This document shows positions 46,992-63,962 of a stretch of 64,000 nucleotides of DNA, piece after piece. Made by a program: the position numbers and the translations under genes. The notes below the pieces were generated by a model. It saw only the letters and a program-made list of their open reading frames with translations. It did no database searches and was not told where the DNA came from. Position 1 is the first letter of the stretch, and every line of letters starts with the position of its first letter. This DNA is from an uncultured Eubacteriales bacterium. Lineage in GTDB: Bacteria; Bacillota; Clostridia; Christensenellales; CAG-314. The DNA lies in NCBI GenBank assembly GCA_948938605.1, contig CARAIG010000047.1, positions 982-64,981 on the forward strand, written 5' to 3'.

Positions 46992-47071
46992 TAAATACTA
47001 AATTCAACTTATACAAAGCTGTACTATGCGCATTATTTTACTTGCAAATATACAACTTAAAACGGAGAAAT

Positions 47072-48004
47072 ATGTTTAAACAAGCCTTAGAATTAATAAA
47101 AAAATACGACACAATCATTATACACCGTCACACAAATCCCGACGGCGATGCAATAGGCAGTCAAACGGGAATGCAACAGCTGCTGCAATGCAATTTCCCC
47201 CAAAAGTCGGTTTTTATTGTAGGCGACGACCCCAAAAGATACGGCTTTATGGATAACTGCGCACCGCAAACCGTAGCGGACGAAACTTACAAAGGCGCGC
47301 TTGCCATAATACTGGACACCTCGGTTAAATCGATGATTTCCGACGGACGTTACACCACTGCGGAAAAAACTTTGCGTTTTGACCACCACATCTACTGCGA
47401 AACGATAGCGGACGTTGACATTGTGGACAACACCTACGAAAGCTGCTGCGGACTTGTTGCCGACTTTGCATTACAAACGGGGCTTAAACTCAACCAAGCA
47501 TCGGCAAAAGCGTTGTTTACGGGAATGGTAACCGATAGCGGACGTTTCCGTTACGATGCGACAAACGCAAGGACGTTTAGGTTGGCTTCCGCCCTAATAG
47601 AGCAAGGCTTCGACACAAACGAGATATATGCAAACCTTTACGCCGACGACTTCGATATGATACTGCTGCGTGCGAAATACGTGCAAAAAATACGCTTTAC
47701 AAAGCATAACGTTGCATACATAATTACAACCAAGGACGAACTGCTTAGCACTCCCGCCGACGAATTTACCGTATCGCGCGGAATGGTAGGCGTAATGAGC
47801 GACATCCGCGGGGTAGACAGCTGGGTAAACTTTACCGAAACCGACCATGGCGTACTGTGCGAATTGCGCAGCAAAAAGTACAACATTAACCCCGTTGCCG
47901 TAAAATACGGCGGGGGCGGTCACGCAAAAGCCAGCGGCGCAACAATTAATGACTTGGATACCGCAATGTTAATGTTACAAGACTTGGATGAATTGAGCAA
48001 ATAA
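47072..48004 (+). CDS. nrnA: DHH/DHHA1 phosphoesterase: NrnA-type oligoribonuclease/pAp phosphatase, paralogue 1
   Basis: IIIHRHTNPDGDAIGS, DHH (RFDHHIY), GMVTDSGRFRY and GGGHAKASGA. Start at ATG 47072 (RBS GGAG); the track ORF starts at TTG 47042. Confidence 0.85.
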   Translation: MFKQALELIKKYDTIIIHRHTNPDGDAIGSQTGMQQLLQCNFPQKSVFIVGDDPKRYGFMDNCAPQTVADETYKGALAIILDTSVKSMISDGRYTTAEKTLRFDHHIYCETIADVDIVDNTYESCCGLVADFALQTGLKLNQASAKALFTGMVTDSGRFRYDATNARTFRLASALIEQGFDTNEIYANLYADDFDMILLRAKYVQKIRFTKHNVAYIITTKDELLSTPADEFTVSRGMVGVMSDIRGVDSWVNFTETDHGVLCELRSKKYNINPVAVKYGGGGHAKASGATINDLDTAMLMLQDLDELSK

Positions 48005-48023
48005 AATTTACGGAGTTAAATAT

Positions 48024-49010
48024 ATGACAGAACAATTTAAAACAATGAAAGCAATTTTAGACAAAATCAAGCAATACGACCGAATAATAATTACTCGGCA
48101 CGTGCGTCCCGACGGCGACGCAATAGGTTCGACAAAGGGCTTGGCGCGCATATTGCGGTTAACATACCCTAAAAAGGAAATTTACCTGCAAACAAACGAC
48201 GGCAGCGACTACCTTGCGTTTTTAGGCAAGGACGACGAACACATAGCCCCCGAACTGTACAAGGACGCATTGTTAATAGTTATCGACACCGCCACCGCCG
48301 ACAGAATTTCCAATAGCCATTACGACAAAGCGCGCGAAATAATTAAAATAGACCACCACATAGACATCAAGCCCTACGGCGACTTGTGCTGGATAGAGGA
48401 CTTGCGCAGTTCCGCTTGCGAAATGATTGCATATTTTTACCAAACTTTTAAAGACGAACTTAAAATCGACAAGGAAGCGGCAACCTACATCTTTTGCGGA
48501 ATGGTAACGGATTCCGGACGTTTCCGTTACGAATCGACAACCGGCGAAACATTGCGCCTTGCAAGCATGCTGCTCGACTGCGGAGTAGACACCGAAACGC
48601 TGTACTCCCACTTATACTTGGAGGACTTCGACTTCCTTAAATTCCAAGCATATGTATTCGAACAAATGCAAATTACAAAAAACGGCGTTGTACACTTGTA
48701 CGTAGACAACGCAATGCAACAAAAGTTTAACCTTACAACCGAGCAAGCAAGCGAAGCAATAAGTTTTCTTAAAGGCATAAAAGGTTGCATAGCACAACTG
48801 GCATTTATAGATATGCCCGACGGCACTATCCGCGTAAGGTTGCGCAGTCGCTTTATGACAATAAACCAACTTGCGGAAAAATACGGCGGTGGCGGACACC
48901 AATGCACTTGCGGAGCAACGTTGCACAACCCTGCCGAAATTGAGCCGATGCTTGACGACGCGGACAAAATGGTTGCCGACTATAAGGCAAACAACAAGGG
49001 TTGGTTATGA
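48024..49010 (+). CDS. nrnA: DHH/DHHA1 phosphoesterase: NrnA-type, paralogue 2
   Basis: IIITRHVRPDGDAIGS, KIDHHID, GMVTDSGRFRY and GGGHQCTCGA. The stop TGA overlaps the surE ATG as ATGA. Confidence 0.85.
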   Translation: MTEQFKTMKAILDKIKQYDRIIITRHVRPDGDAIGSTKGLARILRLTYPKKEIYLQTNDGSDYLAFLGKDDEHIAPELYKDALLIVIDTATADRISNSHYDKAREIIKIDHHIDIKPYGDLCWIEDLRSSACEMIAYFYQTFKDELKIDKEAATYIFCGMVTDSGRFRYESTTGETLRLASMLLDCGVDTETLYSHLYLEDFDFLKFQAYVFEQMQITKNGVVHLYVDNAMQQKFNLTTEQASEAISFLKGIKGCIAQLAFIDMPDGTIRVRLRSRFMTINQLAEKYGGGGHQCTCGATLHNPAEIEPMLDDADKMVADYKANNKGWL

Positions 49011-49735
49011 AAATACTGGTTACAAACGATGACGGAATAGACGCAATCGGGCTGCAAACCCTAGTAAAATTTGCCAAAACGTTGGGGGACGTTACGATAT
49101 GTGCGCCCGCCGTGCAACAAAGTGCTAAAAGCCACGCAATAAACGTACACAACCCGTTTGAAGTTACCAAAGTAAATTATCCCGTTTGTAAAGTTACCGC
49201 CTACAAAGTCAATTCCACGCCCGTAGACTGCGTAAGGTATGCAATGATAGGTTTAGGGATAAAGTTCGACTTGGTACTGTCGGGAGTAAACAACGGCTAC
49301 AACATAGGCGAAGATATTTTGTATAGCGGAACGGTCGGTTGCGTATTCGAAGCGGGTTTGCACGACACCCGCGCCATTGCATTTAGCACCGAACACAACA
49401 ACGGCGAAAACGTACAACAACACATACAAACGGCATACGAATTTATAACTAAAAACAAACTGTTTGATTACTGCAACGTCTACAACGTAAACATACCGCA
49501 AAACGTTACGGGAAGCACCGTAGTTACCCGTCAAGGCGGAGCGTACTTTACCGACGAGTTTATTAAAACGGACGAAACGCACTTTGACCAGCGCGGGTAC
49601 TGCGTGTACAGTTACGGCAACGATTTAACGCTAGACACCGACGCGACAATGAACGGATACATAAGCATAACGCCGTTAACCTGCAAACGGGACGACGAAC
49701 AAGCGTATGCAAAGATTAAAGCGACACTGCGTTAG
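49007..49735 (+). CDS. surE: 5'/3'-nucleotidase SurE
   Basis: MKILVTNDDGIDAIGL and SGVNNGYNIGEDILYSGTVG. ATG at 49007; the track's TTG at 49001 is less likely. Confidence 0.88.
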   Translation: MKILVTNDDGIDAIGLQTLVKFAKTLGDVTICAPAVQQSAKSHAINVHNPFEVTKVNYPVCKVTAYKVNSTPVDCVRYAMIGLGIKFDLVLSGVNNGYNIGEDILYSGTVGCVFEAGLHDTRAIAFSTEHNNGENVQQHIQTAYEFITKNKLFDYCNVYNVNIPQNVTGSTVVTRQGGAYFTDEFIKTDETHFDQRGYCVYSYGNDLTLDTDATMNGYISITPLTCKRDDEQAYAKIKATLR

Positions 49736-49841
49736 GAACAGTTAATTTAATGTACAATTTCGGACGACATTACATTGTGTAATGTCGTCCGAAGCTGGGA
49801 CATCTAGACAAGTTTACGAGTCGCATTTTACTAAATATAGC

Positions 49842-49873: not shown

Positions 49874-49900
49874 GTGATAGTTAAATAATATTTATATGTT

Positions 49901-51295
49901 TTAAGCATAGAAGTCTATCGACTTTATGCGCATTTGCGACAACAAGTTTCCACTAATAAAACTTGTAGAAGCGGCATCAAGTACTATCGTTGTCGTAGCA
50001 CCGTTTACTGTAATAGTTGCTCCCGTAACAGTCATACCATTAAAGCCTGTAGTATATTTTCCACTACTATAGTCATCTGCATTGATAACAATTTTTTTAA
50101 ACGCTTGCGTACTTTGGAATGTCATAGTCGAGCCCCTGTAAAATCTTGCGGATACAGGGTCTGCAATATTCATTGTATCGGTAGATTCCGCTTTGTCATT
50201 AATTACAGTAAGTCCGTTTAATGTATATGTTTTTTGCTCAGTACCGTTATTAGATGTCGGAGCAACTTTTTCAAGAGAAATCGTTCCTATCAGCGTTCCG
50301 TCGGGCGCAGGAGTCTCAGTTCCGCCTTGATTACCGCCCTGATTTCCGCCTTGGTTTCCACCGCTACCTATTGTAACATTAGCAGGAATTAAACGCGCAA
50401 CAAATTGTGAAATATCAACGGCATATTCGCCCTTGCTATCATTAAGGTAGTGGTCGGAATTGGAACTGATTGTTTCGTAAGTTCCGTGTGTAGACAGCAT
50501 AAATTTGCCATTGTCGAACGCCCCCATAAGAATGTTGTCGTTAGCTACCGAATAAACGGTCGAACCGCTTGCAGTGAGTGTTATTTTTGTTTTGATATTT
50601 GTTGCGCCATTTGTATCATCAACTAATGTGATGTACTGTTTGGATCCGCCTTTGGCAGTTAACGCAATGTAAAAACCGCCTGTTGTTGTTTCAATTGTTA
50701 CGGTTGCAGCTTGATCCTTACTCTCGGTAGTAGCAAGAAATTTGCCATCCATTACACCTGTTGCGTAAAGAACCTTGTTTGCACTGCCTTGCCACATTAC
50801 CATAACGTAATCGGTTCCGGCTGCAGGGGCGCTTACTGCATTTTCTTTTATTTGTTCAAGAGATGTTTTTTGTGTGTCACCGCCTTGGTTGCCACCCTCA
50901 TTTCCACCTTGGTTACCGCCTTGGTTTCCGCCGTTTACGGATACAGCCTTGCTGACGGTTTTAATTTCGTTACCCTTTTCGTCAACTAACTTGGCAGTTA
51001 AAATATAACTTGTAACACCGCTAGGTACAGTTACCGAACCGTTTGTAATTGTTACGCCGTTGTCGGCTTCCCATTTAATGTTACAAGAAATTTCGTTACC
51101 GTCAACGTCTTCGAACGACACAACGTCGCTAAGCACATAACTTGTTTTGCCTTGTGCATTACTGATTTGTTCTTCAACTTTTTTTGTCAGTTCGGTGATA
51201 GCATAATCATCGAGACCTTGACACGCAACAAGCACGCCAAAACATACCGACAAAGCAAGGACAACAAGCACGATTAAAGAGACTTTCCTTTTCAT
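49901..51295 (-). CDS. Lipoprotein of unknown function with two GGNQ-repeat linkers; its N-terminal module is paralogous to the upstream gene
   Basis: Start at ATG 51295 (RBS AGGAG 8 nt upstream); signal plus lipobox MKRKVSLIVLVVLALSVCFGVLVAC. GGNQGGNQGGNEGGNQGG lies at nt 50879-50932 and GGNQGGNQGGNQGG at nt ~50320-50366. Confidence 0.7.
   Translation of the reverse strand: MKRKVSLIVLVVLALSVCFGVLVACQGLDDYAITELTKKVEEQISNAQGKTSYVLSDVVSFEDVDGNEISCNIKWEADNGVTITNGSVTVPSGVTSYILTAKLVDEKGNEIKTVSKAVSVNGGNQGGNQGGNEGGNQGGDTQKTSLEQIKENAVSAPAAGTDYVMVMWQGSANKVLYATGVMDGKFLATTESKDQAATVTIETTTGGFYIALTAKGGSKQYITLVDDTNGATNIKTKITLTASGSTVYSVANDNILMGAFDNGKFMLSTHGTYETISSNSDHYLNDSKGEYAVDISQFVARLIPANVTIGSGGNQGGNQGGNQGGTETPAPDGTLIGTISLEKVAPTSNNGTEQKTYTLNGLTVINDKAESTDTMNIADPVSARFYRGSTMTFQSTQAFKKIVINADDYSSGKYTTGFNGMTVTGATITVNGATTTIVLDAASTSFISGNLLSQMRIKSIDFYA
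50879..50932 (-). repeat. 12-nt tandem coding repeat (GGNQ, 4-5 units); a second array lies at ~50320-50366
   Basis: The plus strand shows reiterated ccttggttNccNcc units. Confidence 0.8.
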
Positions 51296-51499: not shown

Positions 51500-51528
51500 G
51501 CAAAAAGGCCAACCGCAAGGGTTAGCCT
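51500..51528 (-). terminator. Intrinsic terminator after the 752-aa lipoprotein gene
   Basis: The minus-strand RNA reads AGGCUAACC-cuugc-GGUUGGCCU followed by UUUUU. The one G-U pair would be a C-A mismatch on the plus strand. Confidence 0.65.
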
Positions 51529-51589: not shown

Positions 51590-53848
51590 TTATTCAGCAT
51601 CGGCCGTTCCGATTGTGATGTTAGCATCTTCCCTTGTAATATCATTTCTTGTAAGAACGATATCATATGTTCCTTCGGGCAATATTAATACTGCTTTTTC
51701 TACCCAGTCGGTACCTTCAATGCGGCTTGCTGCACCGTATTCGATTTTACCTGTAATTGTGCAGCCTGCTTCTACCGTTACGCTTAATCCTTCGTCATAT
51801 TGTGCAAACATTCCGTACCAAAGGTCGAATGCCACACCGTTTTCAGCAGCAATAATCTTGCTGTTGCCTTTGATTACAACCGTTCCGAAGTTGTTGGAAA
51901 GGGTGTATTTGCTTCCTTTAAGGTTGGTTCCGTCAAGAGTTACTCCGTCAAGAGTTAAGTTGCAGTAGTTTTGGATAAGCATTTGAGCGGAGTCCGCTTG
52001 GCAATTGATTGTGCCGTTTTTGAATACAACAGTGTTACCTTTTTCAAGGTGAATACTTTGAGATACTGTACCGGTGCTGCCAACAAGGGGTTTACCGATT
52101 GTCAATGTGTGTTTATTAAGGTCGATTGTAAAGTTGCGAGAACCTTCGCCAAGGAAGATACCGCCGCTTACTACGTCCTTTTGCAATACAATCGTTTCAC
52201 CGTTTCTAACTGCTTCGATTGCTTCGAGAAGAGTTGCATAGGAAGTGTTTCCGATTTTTGCTTCGCCTTCAACGGGAGTAATGGGTTCATCAATTTTGTC
52301 ACCAACAGTGATATTGAGCGACTTCAAACCAACTTGTTGATTTCCAGATTCGCATCCGCTAAGTAGAACCAATCTAACTGCTTTAACATTAGCAGGCAAA
52401 TTGCTTACGGTTAAAGTAGTATAATTTTCTAAAGAAACTGCCTTTTCAGCATTTCTAATTCCTACGCCTTCCACTTCTTCCCATGTTGTGCCATCAACAG
52501 TATAATCCAACGCAATTGTATTGAATTTCTTGCTTGCAGCCCACATTTCCAAATTAAGAGTAATGCTCTTTATAGCTTTACCGTTTACGGCTATCGTTGT
52601 ATACATCGGTGTAGTATTACTATTCGGTGCCAAAACCGGCATAGTAGTAATTGTTTGAGTTTGTTTTGCAGCACGTGCAATTGAAATCAAAATATCCATA
52701 TTGGTTACATCTAAAGCCGCGCTGTCGATTTCACGTGCAGCATAGGAATTACTCCAATCTTTTGCATAAGTTGCAAAGTTTGTCGCAAAATTAATGTTTG
52801 CAGTTTGTTCGCCTTCTGCCGCAACTAAAGCAACAACCGTAATCTCTGTATCCCCTTCGATTGTGCCTTCATAATTATTTCCGCTTGTAGCGGCAACTTC
52901 CGTTCCATTAACTTTGACACTTGAAATTGTAGCATTATTTTTAGCAGTTACCGTAAAAGTAAACTTTTCGCCATTAAGACCACTGGTTTTGCCAAGTGTC
53001 ACTTCCGCATTTTCATTAGCAGGAGCAGTAATGGCAGAAGTACCGATGGTACGAGAAGTAACAACAGGATAATCGCGAGCGGGAGTGGTACCTTCTGCTT
53101 TAGAACCTGTTAATTCGGGATTTGTAGGACTATAGTTCATATAATATCCATTCACAACAACTGTATCATTTTGGTACACAGCGTCAATTCCGCTTTGTAA
53201 TGTGCCAGAATAAATTTGAAGTTTTTGTGTTGAATCTTTACTGTCGGCAATCCAAAACGAATACGACTTATAATTCGCATTATAACTAGGCGCAGTAATG
53301 ACAATACCGCTTACATATAATTTATTTTCGGAAAAGCCTTTTTCTGGGATAGTTATCATTTCAGCCAAAAGACCCGCTACCGAATACGGTGAATCTACTG
53401 TACCTTGTCCTTTTCCTGCGGGAACAACTTTGGAAATTTCCAACTTATATTCTTTGCCGTCCTTATCGGTGTAAGCATTACCTTTTTCGTCTACCATTAC
53501 GCCAACTAATTTATAGTTAACTTCTTCGTCAACTTCGTCGGGAACGATAATTTGGTATTGACCGTTAGAGTTAGGAGTTTCGCCAACTTTAACCAAAGTG
53601 GTTCCTTCGATCGTCCACTTGATTTTTACAGAAATTTCCTTTCCGCCGTCTTCGAGAACAAATACGTCTCCTTCAACCCAGAAAGATGTTGCTGATTCCT
53701 TAGCATCGTTTTTGTGAAGTTTAGTGAATTCCTTGTATAAGCTGTCAAGCTGTTCGGTTGAAGGTCCCTTTTGACAAGCAACCAAAACGCCCAAACCCAA
53801 TGCAATCACTAACATGAGCGATAAAATTGTTATCAGTTTACGTTTCAT
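51590..53848 (-). CDS. Large multidomain lipoprotein: shared N-terminal module, OB-fold-like module, Ig-like module and C-terminal beta-helix-like repeats; function unknown
   Basis: MKRKLITILSLMLVIALGLGVLVAC. EISVKIKWT...MVDEKGN parallels EISCNIKWE...LVDEKGN of the downstream gene. KLYVSGIVITAPSYNANYKSYSFWIADSKDSTQKLQIYSG looks like the OB-type modules seen in extracellular nucleases. Confidence 0.7.
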   Translation of the reverse strand: MKRKLITILSLMLVIALGLGVLVACQKGPSTEQLDSLYKEFTKLHKNDAKESATSFWVEGDVFVLEDGGKEISVKIKWTIEGTTLVKVGETPNSNGQYQIIVPDEVDEEVNYKLVGVMVDEKGNAYTDKDGKEYKLEISKVVPAGKGQGTVDSPYSVAGLLAEMITIPEKGFSENKLYVSGIVITAPSYNANYKSYSFWIADSKDSTQKLQIYSGTLQSGIDAVYQNDTVVVNGYYMNYSPTNPELTGSKAEGTTPARDYPVVTSRTIGTSAITAPANENAEVTLGKTSGLNGEKFTFTVTAKNNATISSVKVNGTEVAATSGNNYEGTIEGDTEITVVALVAAEGEQTANINFATNFATYAKDWSNSYAAREIDSAALDVTNMDILISIARAAKQTQTITTMPVLAPNSNTTPMYTTIAVNGKAIKSITLNLEMWAASKKFNTIALDYTVDGTTWEEVEGVGIRNAEKAVSLENYTTLTVSNLPANVKAVRLVLLSGCESGNQQVGLKSLNITVGDKIDEPITPVEGEAKIGNTSYATLLEAIEAVRNGETIVLQKDVVSGGIFLGEGSRNFTIDLNKHTLTIGKPLVGSTGTVSQSIHLEKGNTVVFKNGTINCQADSAQMLIQNYCNLTLDGVTLDGTNLKGSKYTLSNNFGTVVIKGNSKIIAAENGVAFDLWYGMFAQYDEGLSVTVEAGCTITGKIEYGAASRIEGTDWVEKAVLILPEGTYDIVLTRNDITREDANITIGTADAE

Positions 53849-53903: not shown

Positions 53904-55385
53904 TTATTCAACAATTAAAATATCTGTGTAATTTGTTACACGTATTTGATATTCATTGTTATTGTTATAATTGTACCAATCTACCATTCCAACAACGGAA
54001 ATCGTTTTGCCTTCAAATTCGTCTTGAGTTACTAAATCGTACAAACCGGTAGATTCGTTTAATTTGTAAAGTTTTTCCGTACGAACGGTAATTTTGTTGC
54101 CGTTGGAATCTTCACAATAAAGCGACATTGCACCTTTACTTGTTCCGCTAGGAGTTGTATAAATGCGTGTAATTGTAAGATTTTTCATAGTAACCGAAGT
54201 GTCTACCAACAGTTGATGAAGTTTGAAAGTTTTAGGAACGGTATCTTCCGAATTAGGATCATAAACATTAACTGTCCTGTTTGAATTAAACTCAGGAATA
54301 GTAAGTTCAACAGGCTCAACAGGTTCGCCGACTCCATCCAACTTGATTGTGTTGTTGGGGTCCTTGGAGTTAACAACGTTATACGACAAACCGGACACTT
54401 GCCACGATCCGTTAAAGTTTTGTGCAGTACCTACCACACGTACGTGATTACCAATATTTAATGCATCCTTAATTTTAGCATTTGAACCATTGTAATAAAC
54501 GGAAATTCCGTAATACAAATCGTCTTCCTCACAATACCATTGCACGTATGTGCTACCATCATAGGAACCTGTCACATAGCCTTCAAAAGCCACTTTTATT
54601 CCGTCATATTGATCGAAATTAGTACGTAATTCTTTAAGGTCTATTTCCTTTGCTGTTCCGTAATAGTAGTTTTCGTCTTTCAACTTGGAGTGCACAATAA
54701 GTTTAGCTTTAACGGCTTGTTGAAGAGCATTCATACAATACTCGCCATAACGGTTGTCGCTTGCGCTGGAACCGTAACCGTAACCTTTTTGCAACAACTC
54801 TAAATTAAGGTTGCGCCAGTCTGACTCCGCATCGGGTTTATACCAAACCCAAGCAAGAGTACGTCCGTAACTGTCGTTGTTCCAAAGATTGTCATCAGTG
54901 TCGGATTCGACAAGTACCGAACCGCCGTTATCTATCGCAGCTTGCAATGTTTCGTGTACATAATTGGAAGCAACTTTGCCGTAAGGCTCGACTTGCCCGG
55001 TGCTTTCGGGAGTATTAACCGCAAGATAACGCGCCTTTAAAACTCCTTCGGGGTGTTTGTCGGACACGGGCACATTGAAGTGCGTTGTATCGCCGTCAAT
55101 GTACATACGCACAATGTTTGCAGCAGTGTATTTTTTTGTATTGGAATTCATATCCAATTGACACTGAGCAACGTAATCCTCCATAGGAAAATCTTCGTCA
55201 CAAAGTTTGCAAACACCGTTGACGTAATCGTGACCTTCGACATCACACTTTTTTTTGCCGCATATTGAACAAACATTGTCATCGTTGAATGTGTGTCCGT
55301 CAGCGCACTTATCGCACGCTATTAAACCGGTTAAACACAAACTCAAAGCGACAAGTAAAAGTATAATTTTTACAAATTTATTCAT
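53904..55385 (-). CDS. Lipoprotein staphylococcal-nuclease (SNase/thermonuclease)-like nuclease with an N-terminal Cys/His-rich module and C-terminal OB-fold-like modules
   Basis: Start at ATG 55385 (RBS GAGGT); lipobox LIAC. The SNase core is RMYIDGDTTHFNV...ARYLAVNTPES...EPYGKVASNYV...DSYGRTLAWVWY...NLELLQKGYGY. VRVVGTAQNFNGSWQVSG is OB-like. Confidence 0.8.
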   Translation of the reverse strand: MNKFVKIILLLVALSLCLTGLIACDKCADGHTFNDDNVCSICGKKKCDVEGHDYVNGVCKLCDEDFPMEDYVAQCQLDMNSNTKKYTAANIVRMYIDGDTTHFNVPVSDKHPEGVLKARYLAVNTPESTGQVEPYGKVASNYVHETLQAAIDNGGSVLVESDTDDNLWNNDSYGRTLAWVWYKPDAESDWRNLNLELLQKGYGYGSSASDNRYGEYCMNALQQAVKAKLIVHSKLKDENYYYGTAKEIDLKELRTNFDQYDGIKVAFEGYVTGSYDGSTYVQWYCEEDDLYYGISVYYNGSNAKIKDALNIGNHVRVVGTAQNFNGSWQVSGLSYNVVNSKDPNNTIKLDGVGEPVEPVELTIPEFNSNRTVNVYDPNSEDTVPKTFKLHQLLVDTSVTMKNLTITRIYTTPSGTSKGAMSLYCEDSNGNKITVRTEKLYKLNESTGLYDLVTQDEFEGKTISVVGMVDWYNYNNNNEYQIRVTNYTDILIVE

Positions 55386-55399
55386 ATTGCCAACCTCTG

Positions 55400-56875
55400 T
55401 TACCATTCGCATTCCGCCAATGCACTATCGAAAGCTTCCTTAATTCCTTTCGCAACAGAAGCTTCGTCGCTACCGGAAACTTTAACGCATTGACTAAGCA
55501 GAACTTCCATTTGGTCGCGCGCTTCCGCCGAACCATAGAAAGCAGGGGATACGAAAAATGCTTCTTTAAAATCGATACAAAGTTTTGCAGCCATACCTGC
55601 CATATTTTCAGCTGTATTAGCGTTAGCAATTATATCTGCATAGCCGTCAAGTTTGTTAACGGATTGAATAACGGGCAGGTAACCTGCCGTCGAACCGTAG
55701 CGGGCTTCAAATTCCGCATTGGTAGTAAGGTACTTAACCAACAACCACGAAGCAACAACTTCCTGCGGGTTAGCAGACTTGAATACGCAAACACTGGGGC
55801 CTTGCGAAATAACTTTTGAGTTGGCAATCGACGTATTGGCTTCCTTTTGAGGAATCATTGTAACGCCCACTTCAAACGGATACTTATTATTTTGCTTAGC
55901 CGGCACTTGCTTAGCCGCTCCGGCAGACGAACCGATAGAAATGTAAGATTTTTTACCCTCGGCGCTGGATGTAGACGTAAAGTAAGTGCTTGTATATGTG
56001 CCTTGAAGCAAATATTTGGTGGTAAACCAGTTCTTTTGATACCATCTACGAAGAGTAGTCAACATTTTTTGGTTTTGTTCGTTGTGGAACAAGTAGTGAT
56101 CGCCTGTGGCGCTGGTATAACCGCTTTGATATTGTTCAAACAAAGTGATAAGCCAGTTTGAACCGGAGTCTACGCCCAAAGGAGTACAATTGGGGTCCTT
56201 ATCCTTAATGAAAGCAAGAGCATATTCCATACTTGTTTTATCGCTTGTTTCCAATCCTTGTTTTCCGTCGGTTGCAAACCAGTGATCCGGCACTTGAAGT
56301 CCCCATTGTTCGAACGACGTCTTATTGTAATACATCAATTCGGTCGACTTTGCAAATGGTAACATATACATTTTGTCGTCGCCGAAAGACTTACCTTCAT
56401 TGTAGTACGCTTCGATAAAGTCATCTTTTTGTGCGTCCGTCAACCCCAAAATTTCAGTTGTACCGTCAGCGCGTTCAACTTCTATTTGACTTTCGATAAG
56501 GCTGTCAAGCGTAACTACTGCGCGCGATTTGTTGTACATAGCCACGTGGTCAGAGTAACAGAACGCTACATTGGGAGGCTGATTAGTAGCCAACAAATTT
56601 TTGATAAGATCGCGGTTAGTATCGTAGTCGCCGCCACGAGTGTGATCAATAGTAATGTTGGGGTACAGTTCGTTAAAACCAACCAATGTTTCTTCCAAAA
56701 TCGTGTTGTAATCCTGTCCCATACTAGAATAGAACTTGATTGTTACTTCACTGCCGTCATAACCGCCTTCGGGAATTTCAAAGTCGGGAATTTCATTTGG
56801 CGTACACGCTACAAAAACAGCGCATATAGATACGACAAGTGCAACAATCAAAATGCTTGCAAAGATTTTCTTCAT
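55400..56875 (-). CDS. ABC transporter substrate-binding lipoprotein (family 1, CUT1-type)
   Basis: Lipobox FVAC. 491 aa with family-1 SBP features, and it lies directly downstream of two MalFG-type permease genes. Confidence 0.8.
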   Translation of the reverse strand: MKKIFASILIVALVVSICAVFVACTPNEIPDFEIPEGGYDGSEVTIKFYSSMGQDYNTILEETLVGFNELYPNITIDHTRGGDYDTNRDLIKNLLATNQPPNVAFCYSDHVAMYNKSRAVVTLDSLIESQIEVERADGTTEILGLTDAQKDDFIEAYYNEGKSFGDDKMYMLPFAKSTELMYYNKTSFEQWGLQVPDHWFATDGKQGLETSDKTSMEYALAFIKDKDPNCTPLGVDSGSNWLITLFEQYQSGYTSATGDHYLFHNEQNQKMLTTLRRWYQKNWFTTKYLLQGTYTSTYFTSTSSAEGKKSYISIGSSAGAAKQVPAKQNNKYPFEVGVTMIPQKEANTSIANSKVISQGPSVCVFKSANPQEVVASWLLVKYLTTNAEFEARYGSTAGYLPVIQSVNKLDGYADIIANANTAENMAGMAAKLCIDFKEAFFVSPAFYGSAEARDQMEVLLSQCVKVSGSDEASVAKGIKEAFDSALAECEW

Positions 56876-56945: not shown

Positions 56946-58061
56946 TTATCCTTTAATTCCGCTACGGGATACGCCTTTCATTATGTATTTACGAAGGAAA
57001 ATAAACACCACAAACAGAGGTATAGACACCAACGTTACAGCAGCCATTTGTACGGGGTAATTGATTTTGTCCGCATCTATCGTGCCGTCTGCCAAATACA
57101 CGTAGAATGATGTTCCACGCAAACCGTTAGTTATAAGTTGGTGAACTTCGTCGTCGGCAACCAAACGCGGCCAAATGTAACTATTCCAACTTCCCATCAT
57201 TTTTAATATCGTAATAGATATTATTGTGGGCAAAGCCAAGGGAATCATTACTTTCCATAAATATTTAAGGTCGCTCGTTCCGTCTACCTTTGCCGCATAA
57301 TACAATTCGTCGGGAATTTGCATAAAGTTTTGACGAAGCAAGTAAATGTAAAATACGCTTACAAGGAAAGGAACTATCAATGCCGTATAGGTATTGCCCC
57401 ATTTGAAATAGTTTGTAACAGTACCGAAGTTTGTAATTGTAAACAGTTCGCCGGGAATCATCATTGTTGCAAGCAAAGCGGCAAACAATGCGTTTTTACC
57501 GCGGAATTGCAATCTAGAAAAAGCAAAAGCGGCAAGTACTGTGATAATTAAAGACAATACAGTAGATACAATGCCTACAAATACGGTGTTTACAAACAAT
57601 GTTCCGAGATTTGCAGTATCAAACGCTTGCGCGTAGTTACTCCACATTATCGTCGTAGGAAAAAACGTCGGCGTCGCACGACTAGCAAATTCCCCCGTCA
57701 AAGCGTATTCGTCATAAGTTTTAAGAGACGATATAATCATCCAATAAAACGGGAACAAAACCGATATTGCAACAGCGATAAGAAAAATATAGATTATCGT
57801 TTTAATCGTGATTTTACCCACTTTTTGCATACGGGTAATGCTGCTAATGTCACGTTCCTTCATTACGCCCTTACTTAAAACAGATGTATCGGTCAAAGCC
57901 TCCGTTACAAGCGTGGGTTCGGTTACAACATCCGCTACGATGTTTTCCTGTTTAATTTCGCCAACTTTTTCGTCTGTCGGCACTACATCCGACGCAACAG
58001 TTACGTTCAACATTTCGTCCGTAACAGGAGTTGCAGTTTCTTTTGATTTCTTTTCAGCCAT
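56946..58061 (-). CDS. CUT1 ABC transporter permease (MalG-like) with a ~85-aa acidic N-terminal extension
   Basis: The EAA-loop region is AAKVDGTSDLKYLWKVMIPLALP. A strong RBS (GGGAGGTG) at the 58061 start supports the extension. Confidence 0.85.
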   Translation of the reverse strand: MAEKKSKETATPVTDEMLNVTVASDVVPTDEKVGEIKQENIVADVVTEPTLVTEALTDTSVLSKGVMKERDISSITRMQKVGKITIKTIIYIFLIAVAISVLFPFYWMIISSLKTYDEYALTGEFASRATPTFFPTTIMWSNYAQAFDTANLGTLFVNTVFVGIVSTVLSLIITVLAAFAFSRLQFRGKNALFAALLATMMIPGELFTITNFGTVTNYFKWGNTYTALIVPFLVSVFYIYLLRQNFMQIPDELYYAAKVDGTSDLKYLWKVMIPLALPTIISITILKMMGSWNSYIWPRLVADDEVHQLITNGLRGTSFYVYLADGTIDADKINYPVQMAAVTLVSIPLFVVFIFLRKYIMKGVSRSGIKG

Positions 58062-58076: not shown

Positions 58077-59027
58077 TTAATAATGTACGCGCTTTTTGCT
58101 TACGTACATATTAAGCATTGTTACTGCGAAAATTATCACAAACAATATTAACGCTCCGGCGCTAGCTCTGCCCTCGGCAGGTTTTCCGCTCATAAGATTG
58201 GTATTAATAAAACCTACCATTGTATTTAAAGCATTTTCGCTTCCCGGAGGCCCCATATTTTCACCAAAGACGCCAACGACGCTGCTGTATTCTTTAAATC
58301 CGCCAATGAAGCCCGTTATAATGACATATGCGAGCATCGGGGACAACATAGGCACTGTTATACGCCAGAATGTGCGGAAACGGCTTGTTCCGTCCACTTT
58401 TGCCGCTTCGTAATACTGCTTGTTTACGCTTTGAAGACCGCCAAGCAATATAAGAATTTTAAAGGGCAATGCGTTCCAAACTATGTAAACAATCATAACA
58501 AACATATTTGCCCAGTAAGACGATCCCATATTTACCCAATTGACTGCCTTACCGCCGAAAAACTCTATTATGTTGTTTATAATACCCGCGGTACTGATTA
58601 TGGGGTTTTCGCCGCCGATACCCGAACCGACCATACTGAACATTGTAGAAAATACAAGACCTATTGCAATCGTGTTGGTTACATACGGTAAAAAGTAAAT
58701 TGTTTGCAACAGTCTGTTTAATGCCTTTATAGAATTAAGACAAACGGCAATAATCAAAGCCAACATAGTCGAAATAGGCACCGTAATAACTGTAAGAAGA
58801 ATCGTATTTAAAAGGCAAGTTTTAAATCCCGGATACTTTACCACCTTTACAAAATTTTGTACGCCGAAAGAAAACTTTACGCCGCCCACTTCTTCTAACA
58901 ATGTGTAATCGTCCAAAAACGCAATACGCAAAGTGTTAATAATCGGCCAAACTGTAAATATCAGCGTCAAAATTATTACGGGCGATAAATACAGCCAAGC
59001 TTTCCATTGTTTTTTATCATCTACCAT
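58077..59027 (-). CDS. CUT1 ABC transporter permease (MalF/UgpA-like)
   Basis: AAKVDGTSRFRTFWRITVPMLSP is the EAA loop. Six transmembrane helices; RBS GAGGTG. Confidence 0.85.
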   Translation of the reverse strand: MVDDKKQWKAWLYLSPVIILTLIFTVWPIINTLRIAFLDDYTLLEEVGGVKFSFGVQNFVKVVKYPGFKTCLLNTILLTVITVPISTMLALIIAVCLNSIKALNRLLQTIYFLPYVTNTIAIGLVFSTMFSMVGSGIGGENPIISTAGIINNIIEFFGGKAVNWVNMGSSYWANMFVMIVYIVWNALPFKILILLGGLQSVNKQYYEAAKVDGTSRFRTFWRITVPMLSPMLAYVIITGFIGGFKEYSSVVGVFGENMGPPGSENALNTMVGFINTNLMSGKPAEGRASAGALILFVIIFAVTMLNMYVSKKRVHY

Positions 59028-59042: not shown

Positions 59043-60320
59043 CTATTTGTCAGCTTTTTCCGCAGTCTTTTTTGCGGGCGCTTTTTTCGTCGTTGTTTTT
59101 ATTGTAGGCTCCTTTTTTGCAGAAGCCTTTTTTGTTGTTGTCGATTTTTTAGCAGGAGCTTTTTTAGCCGCTTTTTCGGACGCCGATTCTTCTGCCGCAG
59201 GTTCTACCGTCTTGGCAACGGGAAGTTCAAAGTAAATTCTTTCTTCCGTTTCTTCATCAAAGATAAACACCTTGTGTGATTTTAACGAAAAACGCACACA
59301 GCCTTCTGCGTCAGCTTCAATCTTGTTGTCAGCATCTACGATTGAGCGAACTTGCGGGTTAAAAGACGCTTCATTTGAAGAAACTACGCTCACGTCACGT
59401 CCCATAACTTCAACACTGCGCAGTTGACAACGCAAAGGTCCGTTTTTATCGTAGATAAAGCCCTCGGGACGTATACCTACGGAAACATTACGGTCGTCAA
59501 CGCCTTTTACATCCATAACAACGTCTTCGCCTATAATCAATTTTTGATTTTCAACCCTACCTTTAAATACGTTAATCGGCGGGGTGCCCAAGAATTTAGC
59601 AACGAACAGGTTAACGGGATTGTCGTAAACATCCTGAGGCTTACCTATTTGCTGCACCACACCCAATTTCATAACGACAATGAAGTCCGAAATAGACATG
59701 GCTTCTTCCTGGTCGTGAGTGACGAATACGGTTGTAATGCCTGTTTCACGCTGAATACGTTTGATTTCTTCACGTGTTTGCAAACGTAAACGTGCGTCTA
59801 AGTTGGACAAAGGTTCGTCCAAAAGCAAAACTCTGGGCATCTTAACCAATGCGCGGGCAATTGCAACACGCTGTTGTTGTCCGCCCGACAACTCGTTAGG
59901 TTTACGATTCATCAATTCGTCAATTTGAACAAGCTTTGCCGCTTGATACGCCCTTTCCAGCATTTCAGTTTTGGTAAGTTTATCCTTACCCTTGAAATTT
60001 TGCAAAGGGAATAGAATATTTTGTTTTACCGTCATATGCGGATACAACGCATAGTTTTGGAACACAAGCCCTACCCCACGGTTTTCTGGCGAAAGTTCGG
60101 TAACATCGTCATCGCCGAAGAAAATTTTACCGCTGGACGGTTTTTGCAAACCGCATATCATATACAGCGTGGTGCTTTTTCCGCAGCCTGACGGCCCCAA
60201 TAAACCGATAAGTTTTCCGTCGGGAATTTCGTAATTAAACTTATTGACCGCAACGACCTCTTGTCCGTTTTTTGTTCTGCTTGGAAAAATCTTGGTTATG
60301 TCTTGCAAAACAACTTTCAT
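59043..60320 (-). CDS. ABC transporter ATP-binding protein (MalK/UgpC-like) with a C-terminal Lys/Ala/Thr-rich tail
   Basis: GPSGCGKST, LSGGQQQRVAIARAL and LLLDEPLSNLD. The last ~55 aa are AKKAPAKKSTTTKKASAKKEPTIKTTTKKAPAKKTAEKADK. Confidence 0.9.
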   Translation of the reverse strand: MKVVLQDITKIFPSRTKNGQEVVAVNKFNYEIPDGKLIGLLGPSGCGKSTTLYMICGLQKPSSGKIFFGDDDVTELSPENRGVGLVFQNYALYPHMTVKQNILFPLQNFKGKDKLTKTEMLERAYQAAKLVQIDELMNRKPNELSGGQQQRVAIARALVKMPRVLLLDEPLSNLDARLRLQTREEIKRIQRETGITTVFVTHDQEEAMSISDFIVVMKLGVVQQIGKPQDVYDNPVNLFVAKFLGTPPINVFKGRVENQKLIIGEDVVMDVKGVDDRNVSVGIRPEGFIYDKNGPLRCQLRSVEVMGRDVSVVSSNEASFNPQVRSIVDADNKIEADAEGCVRFSLKSHKVFIFDEETEERIYFELPVAKTVEPAAEESASEKAAKKAPAKKSTTTKKASAKKEPTIKTTTKKAPAKKTAEKADK

Positions 60321-60368: not shown

Positions 60369-60902
60369 CTATTGATTACTCTGCGCGTCGTCCGCTTTGG
60401 AAACCGATTCGTCAACGGAATCGGTTTGTTGTAATTCCACAACGTTACTTTTACTGTGAGCGCCGTCTTCCTTTAACGTTGCAGTCAAAACGATATTGGC
60501 AGCTTGCACTGCCGTAGCCAAATAGCTAAACACCAAAGCTATAATTATCGACGCCTTAGCGGCTTCATACTCAGTTTTTTTAGCCAAACCGGCTTTTCTC
60601 AACTTTTCCAGTGCCTCAACGTAAAAATTCGACGTGCTAAACAAATGATAATAAACGATTAGTCCGATAGCCAAAGCCAATCCCAAACCCTTCATAATAA
60701 ACATAACGACAGGTTTTTCGTTAAAATTATTTGAAAAGAAAAATACTATCGCACTACCGAAACAAAGCAATACGGATATAATAAGATTGCCCGAATTGTT
60801 TTTAAAGGTCAGGTCTGACATAACAATAAATATCAAACCACCAGTAAACATAATTAACACGCCGATGAATAGCGTTATATTTTTTAATTTCGATTTTAAC
60901 AT
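60369..60902 (-). CDS. Hypothetical integral membrane protein (4-5 transmembrane helices)
   Basis: 177 aa and hydrophobic, with an acidic C-terminal tail. It sits between the RDD-family gene and the ABC ATPase gene on the same strand. Confidence 0.55.
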   Translation of the reverse strand: MLKSKLKNITLFIGVLIMFTGGLIFIVMSDLTFKNNSGNLIISVLLCFGSAIVFFFSNNFNEKPVVMFIMKGLGLALAIGLIVYYHLFSTSNFYVEALEKLRKAGLAKKTEYEAAKASIIIALVFSYLATAVQAANIVLTATLKEDGAHSKSNVVELQQTDSVDESVSKADDAQSNQ

Positions 60903-60940
60903 TTTTCCTCCATCTTGTTACTATCCGTTAAAACTTGCAA

Positions 60941-61705
60941 TTAATACGTCGATTTTTTCACTTCTTCCTGATGTAAACTTTCCTTATATTCCATCAATTC
61001 GTCGTAAGTGGTGAATACCATTTGAGTCTGCATATCCACTACTGCTGTATTTGAGAGGACATCGTGAATGCAGGAATTGGTTTTGGTTGCGATAACCACA
61101 GCAAGCTGCAATACAACAAGCAAACCCAACACTATCAAACCCGTTATGCCTAAAATATTGTTATAGAACACCATATAAAGCAACAATATGGGAACCATTG
61201 TTTCTATTGTATATTTACCCAAAATCGACCTGACGAACAATGCAAACGTAGACATTTTTACACTGTTTTTGAACACAACACCTAAATTGAATACTTTTTT
61301 TCCAACAGTTCTGCCATTTTTCAAACAAAGAGGAATAATAAATTCCACAATAATAATAGGGATAAGCGCGCTAAATGTTATTATCAGTAACGGTAAAGTA
61401 AGCACTTGATTGTATGCGTTTTTCGCATCTTCGTTGCTGAAAAAATCTTGCACAGCTTCATTATACCTTACTACATATTCCTCAGTTTGCTTGTTTAATT
61501 CTTCTTGTGAAATTAAAAGATCGACATTGTGTTTTTCACCGAATTCGACGTAATATTTTTGCAACGCATCGGAATGTTTTTCAATTCCTGTAATAAGAGC
61601 CATCAAATACATTACGCCAACAGCCAAAATAACTATTAATATAAAATCCAACAACCAAGCGGAAATTCTTTTTAATATACTTGCTTTTTGTAAATCGTAA
61701 ATCAT
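60941..61705 (-). CDS. RDD-family membrane protein
   Basis: The N-terminal KRISAWLLDFILIVIL and the later GRTVGKKVFNL are typical of RDD-domain proteins. Confidence 0.55.
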   Translation of the reverse strand: MIYDLQKASILKRISAWLLDFILIVILAVGVMYLMALITGIEKHSDALQKYYVEFGEKHNVDLLISQEELNKQTEEYVVRYNEAVQDFFSNEDAKNAYNQVLTLPLLIITFSALIPIIIVEFIIPLCLKNGRTVGKKVFNLGVVFKNSVKMSTFALFVRSILGKYTIETMVPILLLYMVFYNNILGITGLIVLGLLVVLQLAVVIATKTNSCIHDVLSNTAVVDMQTQMVFTTYDELMEYKESLHQEEVKKSTY

Positions 61706-61851
61706 TAATTTACCTCAAATTCCGCCCCGTTTTGCATTATAATCCGACAAACAGCAACATATTTTGCACTTTTGCGCAAATCGTTCGCATTACAGCGACG
61801 ATACCGTTTTTGCCGTCCGATGTTCCCCAAAACATTACCGTTGACGCAACA

Positions 61852-61887
61852 ATAAAAAAAGCACTATTCTAGAATAAAATAGTGCTC
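61852..61887 (-). terminator. Intrinsic terminator downstream of the 5'-nucleotidase gene, overlapping the 3' end of a small ORF
   Basis: The minus strand reads AGCACTATT-ttattctaga-AATAGTGCT followed by T7. Confidence 0.7.
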
Positions 61888-61955
61888 GTAAAATAAGGGT
61901 GCGACAAGCCAACCTTAAAGAATGCCGTATTAAGATACTGGATCGTTTGTGACAT
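61869..61955 (-). CDS. Candidate 28-aa small ORF (MSQTIQYLNTAFFKVGLSHPYFTSTILF)
   Basis: RBS AAGGAG 7 nt upstream of the ATG at 61955. The stop TAG lies in the loop of the terminator hairpin. No homology is recognisable. Confidence 0.25.
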   Translation of the reverse strand: MSQTIQYLNTAFFKVGLSHPYFTSTILF

Positions 61956-62138
61956 CTCGCTACTCCTTGTCAAATGCTTTTAAAGGTACTAATATAGTCT
62001 ACCATACATTCTGCAAAAAAGCAATACTAAAACATCAAATTGCAAAATAGTTTTTTATTTATTGCCGCAATTTTCGCTCATTTTCATATAGGTTTGCAAC
62101 AAAAATTTCACATATATAACAAGTAACACTCAACCTTG

Positions 62139-63962
62139 CTAAGCATACGTCCATTTACCCGAGGCATTAAACGTCAACTTGACGCTTTGCGTAAGTTTCG
62201 AAACCGATGTGTTGTTGTTGTCAATAGTATAATCCGAACAAGCAACATTAATATTAGACAGCAAATAGTCCCGCGTTATTTGACGATAATTGTAAATCTG
62301 TCCGTTTTTTGTAAGCGCAACCGGCTTAAAGTTGTTGCTTTCAAACGCCGACGGAAAATAATTATAGTTGCGGTAAGAATTTTGGTGGAACAGCAAGTAG
62401 TCAATAACGGCAATTTTGTAGTACTCTTTACTTTCTATGGCGACGCCCGAAACCCGCCAAAAATAGTTGCCGTATTTTACTTCGTTAATAATTTCGCTTC
62501 CCTTTACCCTTGCCACATAAACGATGTTATCAAACGGTATTGCTTCGTAAAGTTCGGAATACGTTATTTCACCGCTATACAAACTGTTACGGGCAGTGTT
62601 GACCATGGCAAGCGCAATGTCGTCATATCCTTGGTTAATTGCATATTCCGCAATGGCTCGGCTGACAAGTCGGGCTATATCGGGGTTGCGATCCAAATAC
62701 GCATCCGTCTTGGCCACTATTTGATTGCGTTCGTCCTTGATTTGCGCGTTGGAATTGTCAATCATTTCGTCCACTACGTACAAATTAGGCCAAGAATTTT
62801 GACGGTAAATATTTTCGTTTGCGTTGTATGTGATATTGCCGTTTGCGTCCACCGTAAGTTTGACGTGCGAAACGTTTGTGCCGTAACTGCCCCCTTGAAT
62901 AAAGGGGATTCCGTCCACGATGTAATTTTGCTGACGGTGAGTGTGTGCGCAAAAAACGGCATCGACATATTGGGATAACCCTGCCGATGACGACGGGCAT
63001 TCGTTGTTTTCCTGTTCGCCAACTAACGCTTGCGGACCGACGTGCGCGCTGACGACTACAACGTCGCAGTCTTTTTCATCGCGCAATTCCTGCGCCAATT
63101 CCTTAATAATGGGCAACGGTTCCTTAAAACCGATTGTCTGCACAAGATTGGACGAAATAGACGTAATTTGGTCCGATCCTATTACTCCTATAATACCCAC
63201 TTTTAAACCGTTATTCAACGTCTTTACAACATACTTTTGAGCAAGTTCGTCGGCAAATGTGCCCCAAGTTTTTGTAGCCGCATCCCAATGGTAGATGTTT
63301 GCGCCTAAAAACGGAACGGAACTTTGGCTTGCCAAAGTTTGCAAATTGTCCAACCCCCAGTCAAACTCGTGGTTGCCAAACGTAAATGCGTCAAAGCCTA
63401 TTTGCGACATACAGCGCGAAAGCAAACTGCCGTAATTCCAGTTGGATTCCATCGAGCCTTGAAACATATCGCCCGAATTTAACAATACGGTGTCGGGGTT
63501 TTGGTTTACGCGTTCCTTTAAATATCCCCCCACCTGAGATATTACGTCGGTTGCGCCGTGAAAGTCGTTAATTGCGTACAAGTCGACGGTTCTTTCTTCC
63601 GACGTCAGCTTGTCGATAATTTGTGTGTCGAAAATTTTGCTGCATACGGAACATTGATAATTTCTAATGCCCGTTGACGTTATTGTAGGGGAAACGGCAA
63701 CAACCCACTTTTTACTGTGGACGTCTTCCTGAACGGTTTGCTTACAATCCGAACACACCTTCCAATGTTTATTTTCGTCAAACTGCCAGTCGCCCGTTGT
63801 GTGCTTGTGCGTATCATCGGGAGGATTGACAGGCGGCTTATCGGACGGATTGTTAGGAGGATTGATAACGCCTGGGAAAATGCCGCAAGCAGACAACATA
63901 AAAACAGACATTGCCAATGCCAGCAACAATATAACGGCTGTAATTTTTTTAAAACTTTTCAT
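62139..63962 (-). CDS. Lipoprotein bifunctional metallophosphatase/5'-nucleotidase (UshA/YfkN-like) with an N-terminal Cys/His-rich module
   Basis: Lipobox LSAC. DLYAINDFHG, NSGDMFQGS and GNHEFD are calcineurin-like motifs, followed by a C-terminal 5'-nucleotidase domain. Confidence 0.85.
   Translation of the reverse strand: MKSFKKITAVILLLALAMSVFMLSACGIFPGVINPPNNPSDKPPVNPPDDTHKHTTGDWQFDENKHWKVCSDCKQTVQEDVHSKKWVVAVSPTITSTGIRNYQCSVCSKIFDTQIIDKLTSEERTVDLYAINDFHGATDVISQVGGYLKERVNQNPDTVLLNSGDMFQGSMESNWNYGSLLSRCMSQIGFDAFTFGNHEFDWGLDNLQTLASQSSVPFLGANIYHWDAATKTWGTFADELAQKYVVKTLNNGLKVGIIGVIGSDQITSISSNLVQTIGFKEPLPIIKELAQELRDEKDCDVVVVSAHVGPQALVGEQENNECPSSSAGLSQYVDAVFCAHTHRQQNYIVDGIPFIQGGSYGTNVSHVKLTVDANGNITYNANENIYRQNSWPNLYVVDEMIDNSNAQIKDERNQIVAKTDAYLDRNPDIARLVSRAIAEYAINQGYDDIALAMVNTARNSLYSGEITYSELYEAIPFDNIVYVARVKGSEIINEVKYGNYFWRVSGVAIESKEYYKIAVIDYLLFHQNSYRNYNYFPSAFESNNFKPVALTKNGQIYNYRQITRDYLLSNINVACSDYTIDNNNTSVSKLTQSVKLTFNASGKWTYA

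Follow-up and report, generated by a model that had tools for sequence, protein, structure and literature searches.

In a stretch of 64,000 nucleotides from an uncultured Eubacteriales bacterium (GTDB lineage Bacteria; Bacillota; Clostridia; Christensenellales; CAG-314; assembly GCA_948938605.1, contig CARAIG010000047.1, positions 982 to 64,981 of the forward strand; hereafter the window), we characterized a gene cassette in which a CUT1-type ATP-binding cassette (ABC) importer is followed directly by a lipoprotein with a staphylococcal nuclease (SNase) domain. The same adjacency is kept in every related locus surveyed, and the genes that recur beside it mostly encode enzymes acting on nucleotides. 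Homology and gene linkage suggest, with a probability of roughly 0.55, that the cassette scavenges nucleic acids along a route from the cell surface to the cytoplasm, importing phosphorylated fragments. The cassette, its neighbours and the signals between them are laid out as follows.

62139-63962, minus strand: UshA-like 5'-nucleotidase lipoprotein (Metallophos and 5_nucleotid_C; matches the 5'-nucleotidase half of PRK09419)
61859-61887, minus strand: strong hairpin terminator between the 5'-nucleotidase and RDD genes (13-bp stem and T-run)
60941-61705, minus strand: RDD-family membrane protein, first gene of the cassette (Pfam RDD, E 3.7e-12)
60369-60902, minus strand: lineage-specific membrane protein of 177 aa, with no significant family match
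59043-60320, minus strand: UgpC/MalK-type ABC ATPase (ABC_tran, 1.1e-36; OB_MalK, 26.1 bits; best NCBIfam match UgpC, 349.8 bits)
58077-59027, minus strand: permease 1, UgpA/MalF-like (BPD_transp_1, 1.9e-20; best NCBIfam match UgpA)
56946-58061, minus strand: permease 2, UgpE/MalG-like, with an N-terminal extension of ~85 aa (BPD_transp_1, 7.2e-17; best NCBIfam match UgpE)
55400-56875, minus strand: CUT1 substrate-binding lipoprotein of the U3GBP/UgpB branch (Pfam SBP_bac_1; lipobox VFVAC)
53904-55385, minus strand: SNase-type nuclease lipoprotein (Pfam SNase)
51590-53848, minus strand: modular surface lipoprotein of 752 aa (Lipo752), outside any Pfam family
51500-51528, minus strand: terminator 3' of the Lipo752 gene, read in the sequence as a hairpin and T-run
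49901-51295, minus strand: lipoprotein of 464 aa (Lipo464), with the N-terminal domain of the family and an all-beta domain of ~150 aa
49841-49874, both strands: bidirectional terminator (15-bp stem) common to the convergent Lipo464 and surE genes
49001-49735 (ATG at 49007), plus strand: SurE 5'/3'-nucleotidase (Pfam SurE, 1.9e-47; TIGR00087, 144.7)
48024-49010, plus strand: NrnA paralogue 2 (DHH and DHHA1; NCBIfam NrnA, 229.5 bits)
47042-48004 (likelier start ATG 47072), plus strand: NrnA paralogue 1 (DHH and DHHA1; NCBIfam NrnA, 231 bits)
46963-46991, plus strand: promoter-like site of the nrnA-nrnA-surE operon (TTGACT-17-TATAAT, 11/12 matches, with an upstream TG)

The gene string, domains and coordinates given in an initial annotation of the window were borne out by the listing of open reading frames (ORFs) and by Pfam and NCBIfam scans, which recovered all the genes that it had named. 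Its terminator at 51500-51528 and the gap of 14 nt that it reported between the binding-protein and SNase genes are both present in the sequence; the gap is 34 nt in the related locus L001 and 18 nt in L003. Gaps between cassette genes in the window range from 14 to 70 nt, and a terminator scan of the window found no strong terminator between 61705 and 51590. The spacing is operon-like and the cassette is probably co-transcribed. On the opposite strand, the surE ATG at 49007 overlaps the nrnA2 TGA (49008-49010) as ATGA (49007-49010), the usual sign of translational coupling, so the predicted coupling of the two nrnA genes to surE stood up as well.

Conservation of the cassette was examined by scanning one genome per GTDB species for relatives of the binding protein. 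Such relatives occur in at least 591 species genomes, mostly metagenome-assembled genomes (MAGs) of Oscillospiraceae, 'Ruminococcus' or Faecousia type from gut or rumen, a few carriers being labelled Spirochaetota. Eighty loci were fetched and six more were obtained through exact-protein look-ups; the survey comprised the 80 and the first four look-ups, which made 81 distinct loci, and these were searched with 13 window proteins by tblastn. At about 50% binding-protein identity, the SNase gene lay directly 3' of the binding-protein gene on the same strand in 81 of 81 loci, and the arrangement is therefore beyond chance; the initial annotation had named this neighbourhood survey in advance as a test of its proposal. 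Each of the 57 loci whose flank reached at least 5.2 kb had the RDD, ATPase and both permease genes upstream, and the ATPase is 62-84% identical across related loci. The same cassette, together with the same convergent surE-nrnA-nrnA, is present in the two closest relatives on long contigs (79-81% binding-protein identity). The 177-aa membrane protein is confined to the closest relatives, being detected by tblastn in L003-L006, and L085 has a similarly sized gene in the corresponding place. The whole cassette was also seen in MAGs labelled Sphaerochaetaceae, Spirochaetales or Ornithospirochaeta (L014, L022, L057, L065, L068 and L073), again at about 50% binding-protein identity, which reflects either inter-phylum transfer or mis-binning. 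In L068 of this group nrnA-nrnA-surE lies on the cassette strand; in L073 the nrnA pair does so and a surE match is absent.

The nrnA-nrnA-surE operon, which had been put forward as a companion of the cassette, recurs as one through several rearrangements. An NrnA pair was located within 10 kb in 30 of the 57 loci with at least 7 kb of downstream sequence, and SurE accompanied it in 25 of these; among all 32 loci that carry an NrnA pair, its placement was convergent downstream in 26, same-strand downstream in five and upstream in one. As an internal control for neighbours, all locus ORFs were clustered without bias. Beyond the core, the recurrent neighbours were NrnA, SurE, a dGTPase-like HD protein (12 loci), a PHP protein just upstream of RDD (11 loci) with best matches to 3',5'-nucleoside bisphosphate phosphatase and RNase RNM, a 5'-3' exonuclease (10 loci) and an NT5C-guanylate kinase fusion (seven loci). 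Examples are L066:5169-6029 (PHP), L067:2180-3421 (dGTPase-like HD), L068:3702-4556 (stand-alone 5'-3' exonuclease) and L077:3815-4939 (NT5C-guanylate kinase fusion). The sole recurrent neighbour that is no nucleotide enzyme was a MATE transporter (nine loci). Among the clustered locus ORFs, no glycoside hydrolase, sugar kinase, sugar regulator or other gene of sugar metabolism was recurrent beside the cassette, and a ugpQ-type glycerophosphodiesterase was likewise absent from the recurrent neighbours.

The transporter has the make-up of the CUT1 family (Transporter Classification 3.A.1.1), as initially annotated: one SBP_bac_1 protein, two BPD_transp_1 permeases and an ABC_tran ATPase, whose OB_MalK match of 26.1 bits falls just under the cut-off of 27. 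The best NCBIfam matches of the four proteins are UgpB, UgpA, UgpE and UgpC, every score being below the equivalog cut-off. The ATPase ends in a basic tail of ~60 residues (~59043-59225, minus strand), rich in Lys, Ala and Thr (KAAKKAPAKK...) and histone-H1-like in look; it is unmatched in most homologues, and tblastn covers 86% of the query. To our knowledge, no role has been described for RDD proteins alongside ABC importers.

Comparison of the single binding-protein sequence with the PDB gave weak matches only. A profile was built from 24 family members; it placed the 7C0F series and its mutants first (E ~7e-19; best 7.7e-19), E. coli UgpB next (~5e-15) and oligosaccharide binders at 1e-12 or weaker. 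7C0F is the uridylyl-3'-5'-phosphoguanosine (U3G)-binding protein (U3GBP) of Thermus thermophilus, a CUT1 dinucleotide binder (PMC12718374, text and SI Table S5; the primary source, as cited there, is Chandravanshi et al., FEBS J 2021, 288:4614). In UgpB and in the glycerophosphocholine (GPC)-binding and U3G-binding proteins, the ligand phosphate is coordinated by two Tyr and two Ser residues that are strictly kept, whereas a glycerol clamp of two Trp residues belongs to UgpB alone and is missing from the large-pocket GPC and U3G binders; pocket volumes are ~315-320 cubic angstroms for glycerol 3-phosphate (G3P), 796 for GPC and 1291 for U3G (PMC12718374). When the family was aligned with E. 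coli UgpB using the motifs GxY, PFxxST, SSxG and GYxP as anchors, UgpB Y42, S121, S247/248, Y323 and R374 fell opposite window residues Y84, S177, S316/317, Y399 and R453, which are invariant or nearly so. The clamp residues W169/W172 align with S239/L242 of the window protein, and the family has N240-W241. With the phosphate site present and the glycerol clamp missing, the pattern is therefore that of large-pocket phosphodiester binders. These comparisons support a place for the binding protein in the phosphate/phosphodiester-binding branch of CUT1, beside a solved dinucleotide binder.

U3GBP is the closest solved relative of the binding-protein family; it and the window protein both have the Tyr/Ser/Ser/Tyr phosphate site and neither has the Trp clamp, the dinucleotide ligand being that of U3GBP. 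The two proteins differ in that their similarity is remote (E 7e-19, obtained with a profile and over two aligned stretches) and in that the window protein is ~85 residues longer and a lipoprotein. In the printed alignments, the residues changed in the U3GBP mutants in the PDB (N83A, Y226A, T242A and Y248A), which we infer to be ligand contacts, align with window D109, Y294, S316 and K322; the position matching Y248 is variable in the window family. We know of no report of a nuclease linked to the Thermus U3GBP gene.

The SNase lipoprotein is likely to be an active nuclease. The SNase profile covers residues 8-143 of the Staphylococcus aureus nuclease, nearly the whole enzyme; D21, R35, E43 and R87 are invariant in 69 SNase homologues and T41 is kept in 68 of them, all five being present in the window. 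Enzymes of this type leave products with 3'-phosphate and 5'-OH ends. The C-terminal half of the window protein has a weak match to the oligonucleotide/oligosaccharide-binding (OB) fold, and sub-threshold matches there in seven of 33 members are suggestive of OB folds. Just after the lipobox there is a Cys-rich CxxC...CxxC stretch (55250-55320, minus strand), and a similar one occurs in the 5'-nucleotidase (~63630-63800, minus strand); these look like zinc ribbons, which are unusual in extracellular lipoproteins.

Downstream of SNase lies a slot for modular lipoproteins, which have a common N-terminal domain followed by OB folds with aBig_2 and/or by one to three copies of the ~150-aa domain. 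Lipo752 is the positional counterpart of the lipoprotein found 3' of SNase in relatives and has 18 homologues, some with PF01336 or aBig_2; the slot lipoprotein of L001 has a significant OB fold (PF01336, 49 bits). Lipo464 belongs to a 65-locus cluster of lipoproteins downstream of SNase. The initial annotation described it as a 465-aa paralogue of Lipo752, and this proved right for the first ~125 residues, which include the signal peptide (35% identity, E 7e-11); the relationship does not extend beyond them and the length is 464 aa. The all-beta domain of Lipo464 (residues 148-310; 50366-50854, minus strand) has no Pfam family and was found in 621 cluster-representative proteins, usually in tandem arrays of two to six copies. 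Its fusion partners in other proteins are Endonuclease_NS_2, Endonuclease I, OB folds, DUF5689 or an S1/CSD domain, and these fusions make a nucleic-acid-related role plausible. The domain is a candidate for a new nuclease-associated, possibly nucleic-acid-binding, module.

The two cytoplasmic NrnA paralogues are 35% identical to each other and have the DHH and GGGH motifs; their NCBIfam scores lie under the equivalog cut-off of 350. SurE exceeds its TIGR00087 cut-off (144.7 versus 135.1) and has the VTNDDG motif.

These components can be arranged into a pathway. Modular lipoproteins with OB folds and/or the ~150-aa domain would hold extracellular DNA or RNA at the membrane, where the SNase lipoprotein would cut it into 3'-phosphorylated mono-, di- and short oligonucleotides. 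The fragment captured by the binding lipoprotein would bear a phosphate and would most likely be a very short oligonucleotide or a mono- or dinucleotide; the UgpAEC-like transporter would bring it into the cell. In the cytoplasm, the NrnA paralogues would cleave short oligonucleotides and SurE would strip terminal phosphates, yielding nucleosides or nucleotides and phosphate for salvage; in other genomes the PHP RNase RNM-like enzyme probably contributes. The initial annotation had proposed a route of cleavage, dephosphorylation, import and finishing. Cleavage, import and finishing survive as the best reading because of the SNase-ABC adjacency, the recurrence of nrnA-nrnA-surE, the nucleotide-enzyme neighbours and the phosphate-branch binding protein, whereas the external 5'-nucleotidase step does not. 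A more specific version, in which the transporter is a dedicated importer of the dinucleotides or short oligonucleotides released by its own SNase, found in at least 591 species and equipped with an obligatory RDD subunit and an undescribed nuclease-associated domain, is advanced tentatively.

Several observations weigh against this pathway, the whole of which is drawn from homology and gene linkage. The related loci are phylogenetically non-independent. Identity between the binding protein and UgpB is only ~22%, and the mapping of its binding residues therefore depends on a remote alignment. In the nuclease, the Ca2+ ligand D40 is replaced by Asn in the window (54999-55001 region, minus strand) and in 59 of the 69 SNase homologues, which hints at a different metal dependence; the nuclease MAG_5040 of Mycoplasma agalactiae is reportedly Mg2+-dependent. 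AlphaFold2 models of Lipo464 and Lipo752 (mean predicted local distance difference test scores, pLDDT, 78 and 80) were compared with the PDB using Foldseek. For Lipo464 the comparison was uninformative (template modelling score, TM, <0.25); the Lipo752 model matched generic beta-sandwich, carbohydrate-binding module (CBM)-like (CBM32-like) and beta-helix structures and so appears partly to resemble a carbohydrate-binding module and a beta-helix. No nucleic-acid-binding fold was among the Foldseek matches of either protein. NrnA is also a housekeeping enzyme, and about half of the loci have no NrnA nearby. Moreover, NrnA and RNase AM-type enzymes are best known to act on 5'-phosphorylated oligonucleotides and on 3'-phosphoadenosine 5'-phosphate (pAp), and the fit between imported product and cytoplasmic enzyme is inexact because SNase leaves 3'-phosphate and 5'-OH ends.

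Three other explanations were weighed, and are taken here in descending order of likelihood. If nucleosides were the imported species, the 5'-nucleotidase or other phosphatases would have to remove every phosphate from the SNase products extracellularly, and NrnA and SurE would be mere housekeeping neighbours. Such import is the common bacterial solution, and the initial annotation had counted the UshA-like 5'-nucleotidase lipoprotein that adjoins the cassette in the window as part of the unit. That gene, however, is set off from the RDD gene by 430 nt that include the strong terminator at 61887-61859, and it is adjacent in only one of 29 fully flanked loci; for these two reasons it was dropped from the unit. 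Nor do 5'-nucleotidases remove the 3'-phosphates that SNase leaves. In Mycoplasma bovis, metabolomics has assigned nucleoside transport to a UgpE-type CUT1 permease (PMC12838404); the window's binding protein, on the other hand, retains the phosphate tetrad of the UgpB/U3G clade, and enzymes for oligonucleotides and bisphosphates (two NrnA, PHP RNase RNM-like) recur beside the cassette. We consider nucleoside import unlikely, though it is the strongest of the three.

A Ugp-like import of phosphate compounds other than nucleic-acid fragments (sugar phosphates, for example, or glycerophosphodiesters derived from teichoic acids or lipids), with SNase serving in a general phosphate-scavenging unit, strikes us as distinctly improbable. 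All four transporter proteins do have Ugp components as their best family matches, and a sulfatase/phosphodiesterase-family gene lies upstream in L001, but the glycerol Trp clamp of UgpB is missing, nucleotide enzymes dominate the neighbourhood in which no ugpQ-type gene recurs, and the link to SNase is absolute (81/81). In favour of this reading, U3GBP is also said to bind glycerophosphodiester-type ligands as a moonlighting function; the title of its source paper, as cited in PMC12718374, includes the words 'moonlighting function'. We would give still less weight to a plain oligosaccharide importer, for which the nuclease and lipoproteins would serve in remodelling biofilm extracellular DNA (eDNA) or in attachment to host or mucus, the operon ensuring surface co-expression. 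The database label of the family, 'multiple sugar transport system substrate-binding protein', points that way, as do the CBM32-like beta-sandwich and beta-helix of the Lipo752 model and the glycoside hydrolase and mucin-type peptidase genes elsewhere in the window. Yet solved sugar binders score below U3GBP and UgpB in the profile comparison, the phosphate tetrad is kept, most recurrent neighbours act on nucleotides, and glycoside hydrolase, sugar kinase and sugar regulator genes are not among them.

The scavenging pathway preferred here has precedents, and the suggestion in the initial annotation that nucleic-acid import would be new for a CUT1 system is overstated: mycoplasma operons (PMC3585158, PMC4045577), U3GBP (PMC12718374) and the M. 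bovis UgpE-type permease (PMC12838404) came before. Its statement that mycoplasma SNase lipoprotein nucleases are encoded in ABC operons agrees with the literature. These operons, each termed a 'putative nucleotide transporter operon', contain an SNase lipoprotein, an ABC ATPase, two permeases of sugar/oligosaccharide/Ugp type and a P80, P81 or MslA lipoprotein, and are modelled to capture a polynucleotide, cleave it and import nucleotide precursors; models of P80 treat it as a sugar-type binding protein, DNA binding has been reported for MslA, and the SNase members include MAG_5040, Mhp379, MBOVPG45_0310, MPN133 and MG_186 (PMC3585158, PMC4045577). As in the window, the gene of a surface SNase lipoprotein is contiguous with those of a Ugp/sugar-type ATPase, two permeases and an accessory lipoprotein. 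The order differs, being lipoprotein-nuclease-ATPase-permeases in mycoplasmas and RDD-ATPase-permeases-binding protein-nuclease-lipoprotein here; an RDD protein is always present here, and the host belongs to the standard-code Clostridia rather than the mollicutes. MPN140 of Mycoplasma pneumoniae presumably lies near MPN133, from which it is a few locus tags away (a nearness taken from the tags and from the gene order of M. genitalium). MPN140 is an NrnA homologue (PMC5508000). The binding protein of the window is a canonical SBP_bac_1 protein, unlike the Lipoprotein_X/Lipoprotein_10 type of P80/MslA (PMC9769879), and Pfam at E<=0.01 gave no Lipoprotein_X or Lipoprotein_10 match in the window lipoproteins. 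Weak matches to the mollicute 'P68 family' lipoprotein model NF045826 were obtained for 21 of the 24 binding-protein family members, a weak and indirect hint of a link to the mycoplasma operon. By analogy, the window system may work like that operon.

Two further systems invite comparison. Bacillus subtilis YhcR is an extracellular wall protein of the architecture OB-OB-SNase-5'-nucleotidase, and thus also places OB folds, SNase and nucleotidase chemistry outside the cell. In the window these modules are separate lipoproteins and genes, the 5'-nucleotidase stands behind its own terminator and is no conserved partner, and there is a dedicated importer. DNA-degradation clusters of Candidatus Izemoplasmataceae and other sediment bacteria likewise group extracellular nuclease genes with nucleotidases and transporters, and have been interpreted as loci for foraging on eDNA (Wasmund et al. 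2021, PMC8289736). In the passages considered, the nucleases are accompanied by phosphate ABC and nucleobase transport, and no CUT1 importer, SNase or NrnA unit is mentioned (PMC8289736).

The spacer upstream of the RDD gene (61706-62138, minus strand) holds a 28-codon ORF, the terminator, a sub-threshold PyrR-like Rfam match and a perfect palindrome, TTTGCGCAAA (61771-61780). The region may act as a leader or attenuator, or may merely be the terminator region of the upstream gene; its sequence is not kept in the other 41 upstream regions. A PyrR attenuator (RF00515; 61852-61990) was rejected: the match scores 37.8 bits against a threshold of 54, and 12 nt of the binding loop are missing from it. 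None of the 42 regions scanned upstream of RDD, window included, contains a TCCAGAGAGG-like motif.

The remainder of the window encodes RecD2, metK, Trk, a tRNA synthetase of lysyl/asparaginyl type, an M60-like peptidase and a glycoside hydrolase family 2 (GH2) enzyme. Upstream of metK (3540-4954, minus strand) there is an S-adenosylmethionine (SAM) riboswitch (RF00162, 73 bits). Large surface proteins, all on the minus strand, comprise the M60-like peptidase with F5/8 type C domains and proteins with BspA-type leucine-rich repeats (LRR) and Listeria-Bacteroides repeats (24682-28851, 44555-46636 and 10720-13068), and are consistent with a mucosa- or gut-associated lifestyle. The locus has an even G+C content and is flanked by ordinary genes, and the annotated ORFs showed no mobility genes. 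A mobile genomic island was rejected on these grounds, and 'island', the term used in the initial annotation, is a misnomer because the locus is ordinary chromosome.

What is new here is a cassette outside the mollicutes, its breadth across at least 591 species genomes, its RDD partner and an undescribed nuclease-associated domain. Two of its parts are thereby brought to attention as unexplained: the RDD protein that accompanies an ABC importer, and the ~150-aa domain that is joined to nucleases of several types. The canonical soluble binding protein makes the 'nucleotide transporter operon' hypothesis from mycoplasmas directly testable. Nucleic acids in gut and rumen are a large nutrient pool, and the uptake of their breakdown products by most anaerobes is poorly known. 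Annotations uniformly call the cassette a generic sugar transporter, so if it is a nucleotide or oligonucleotide importer, thousands of annotations would be reassigned. Should the importer indeed be dedicated to such fragments, it would be the first defined outside the Mollicutes and would mark these bacteria as nucleic-acid foragers or nucleotide auxotrophs, and the cassette may explain growth requirements of uncultured Oscillospirales-type bacteria.

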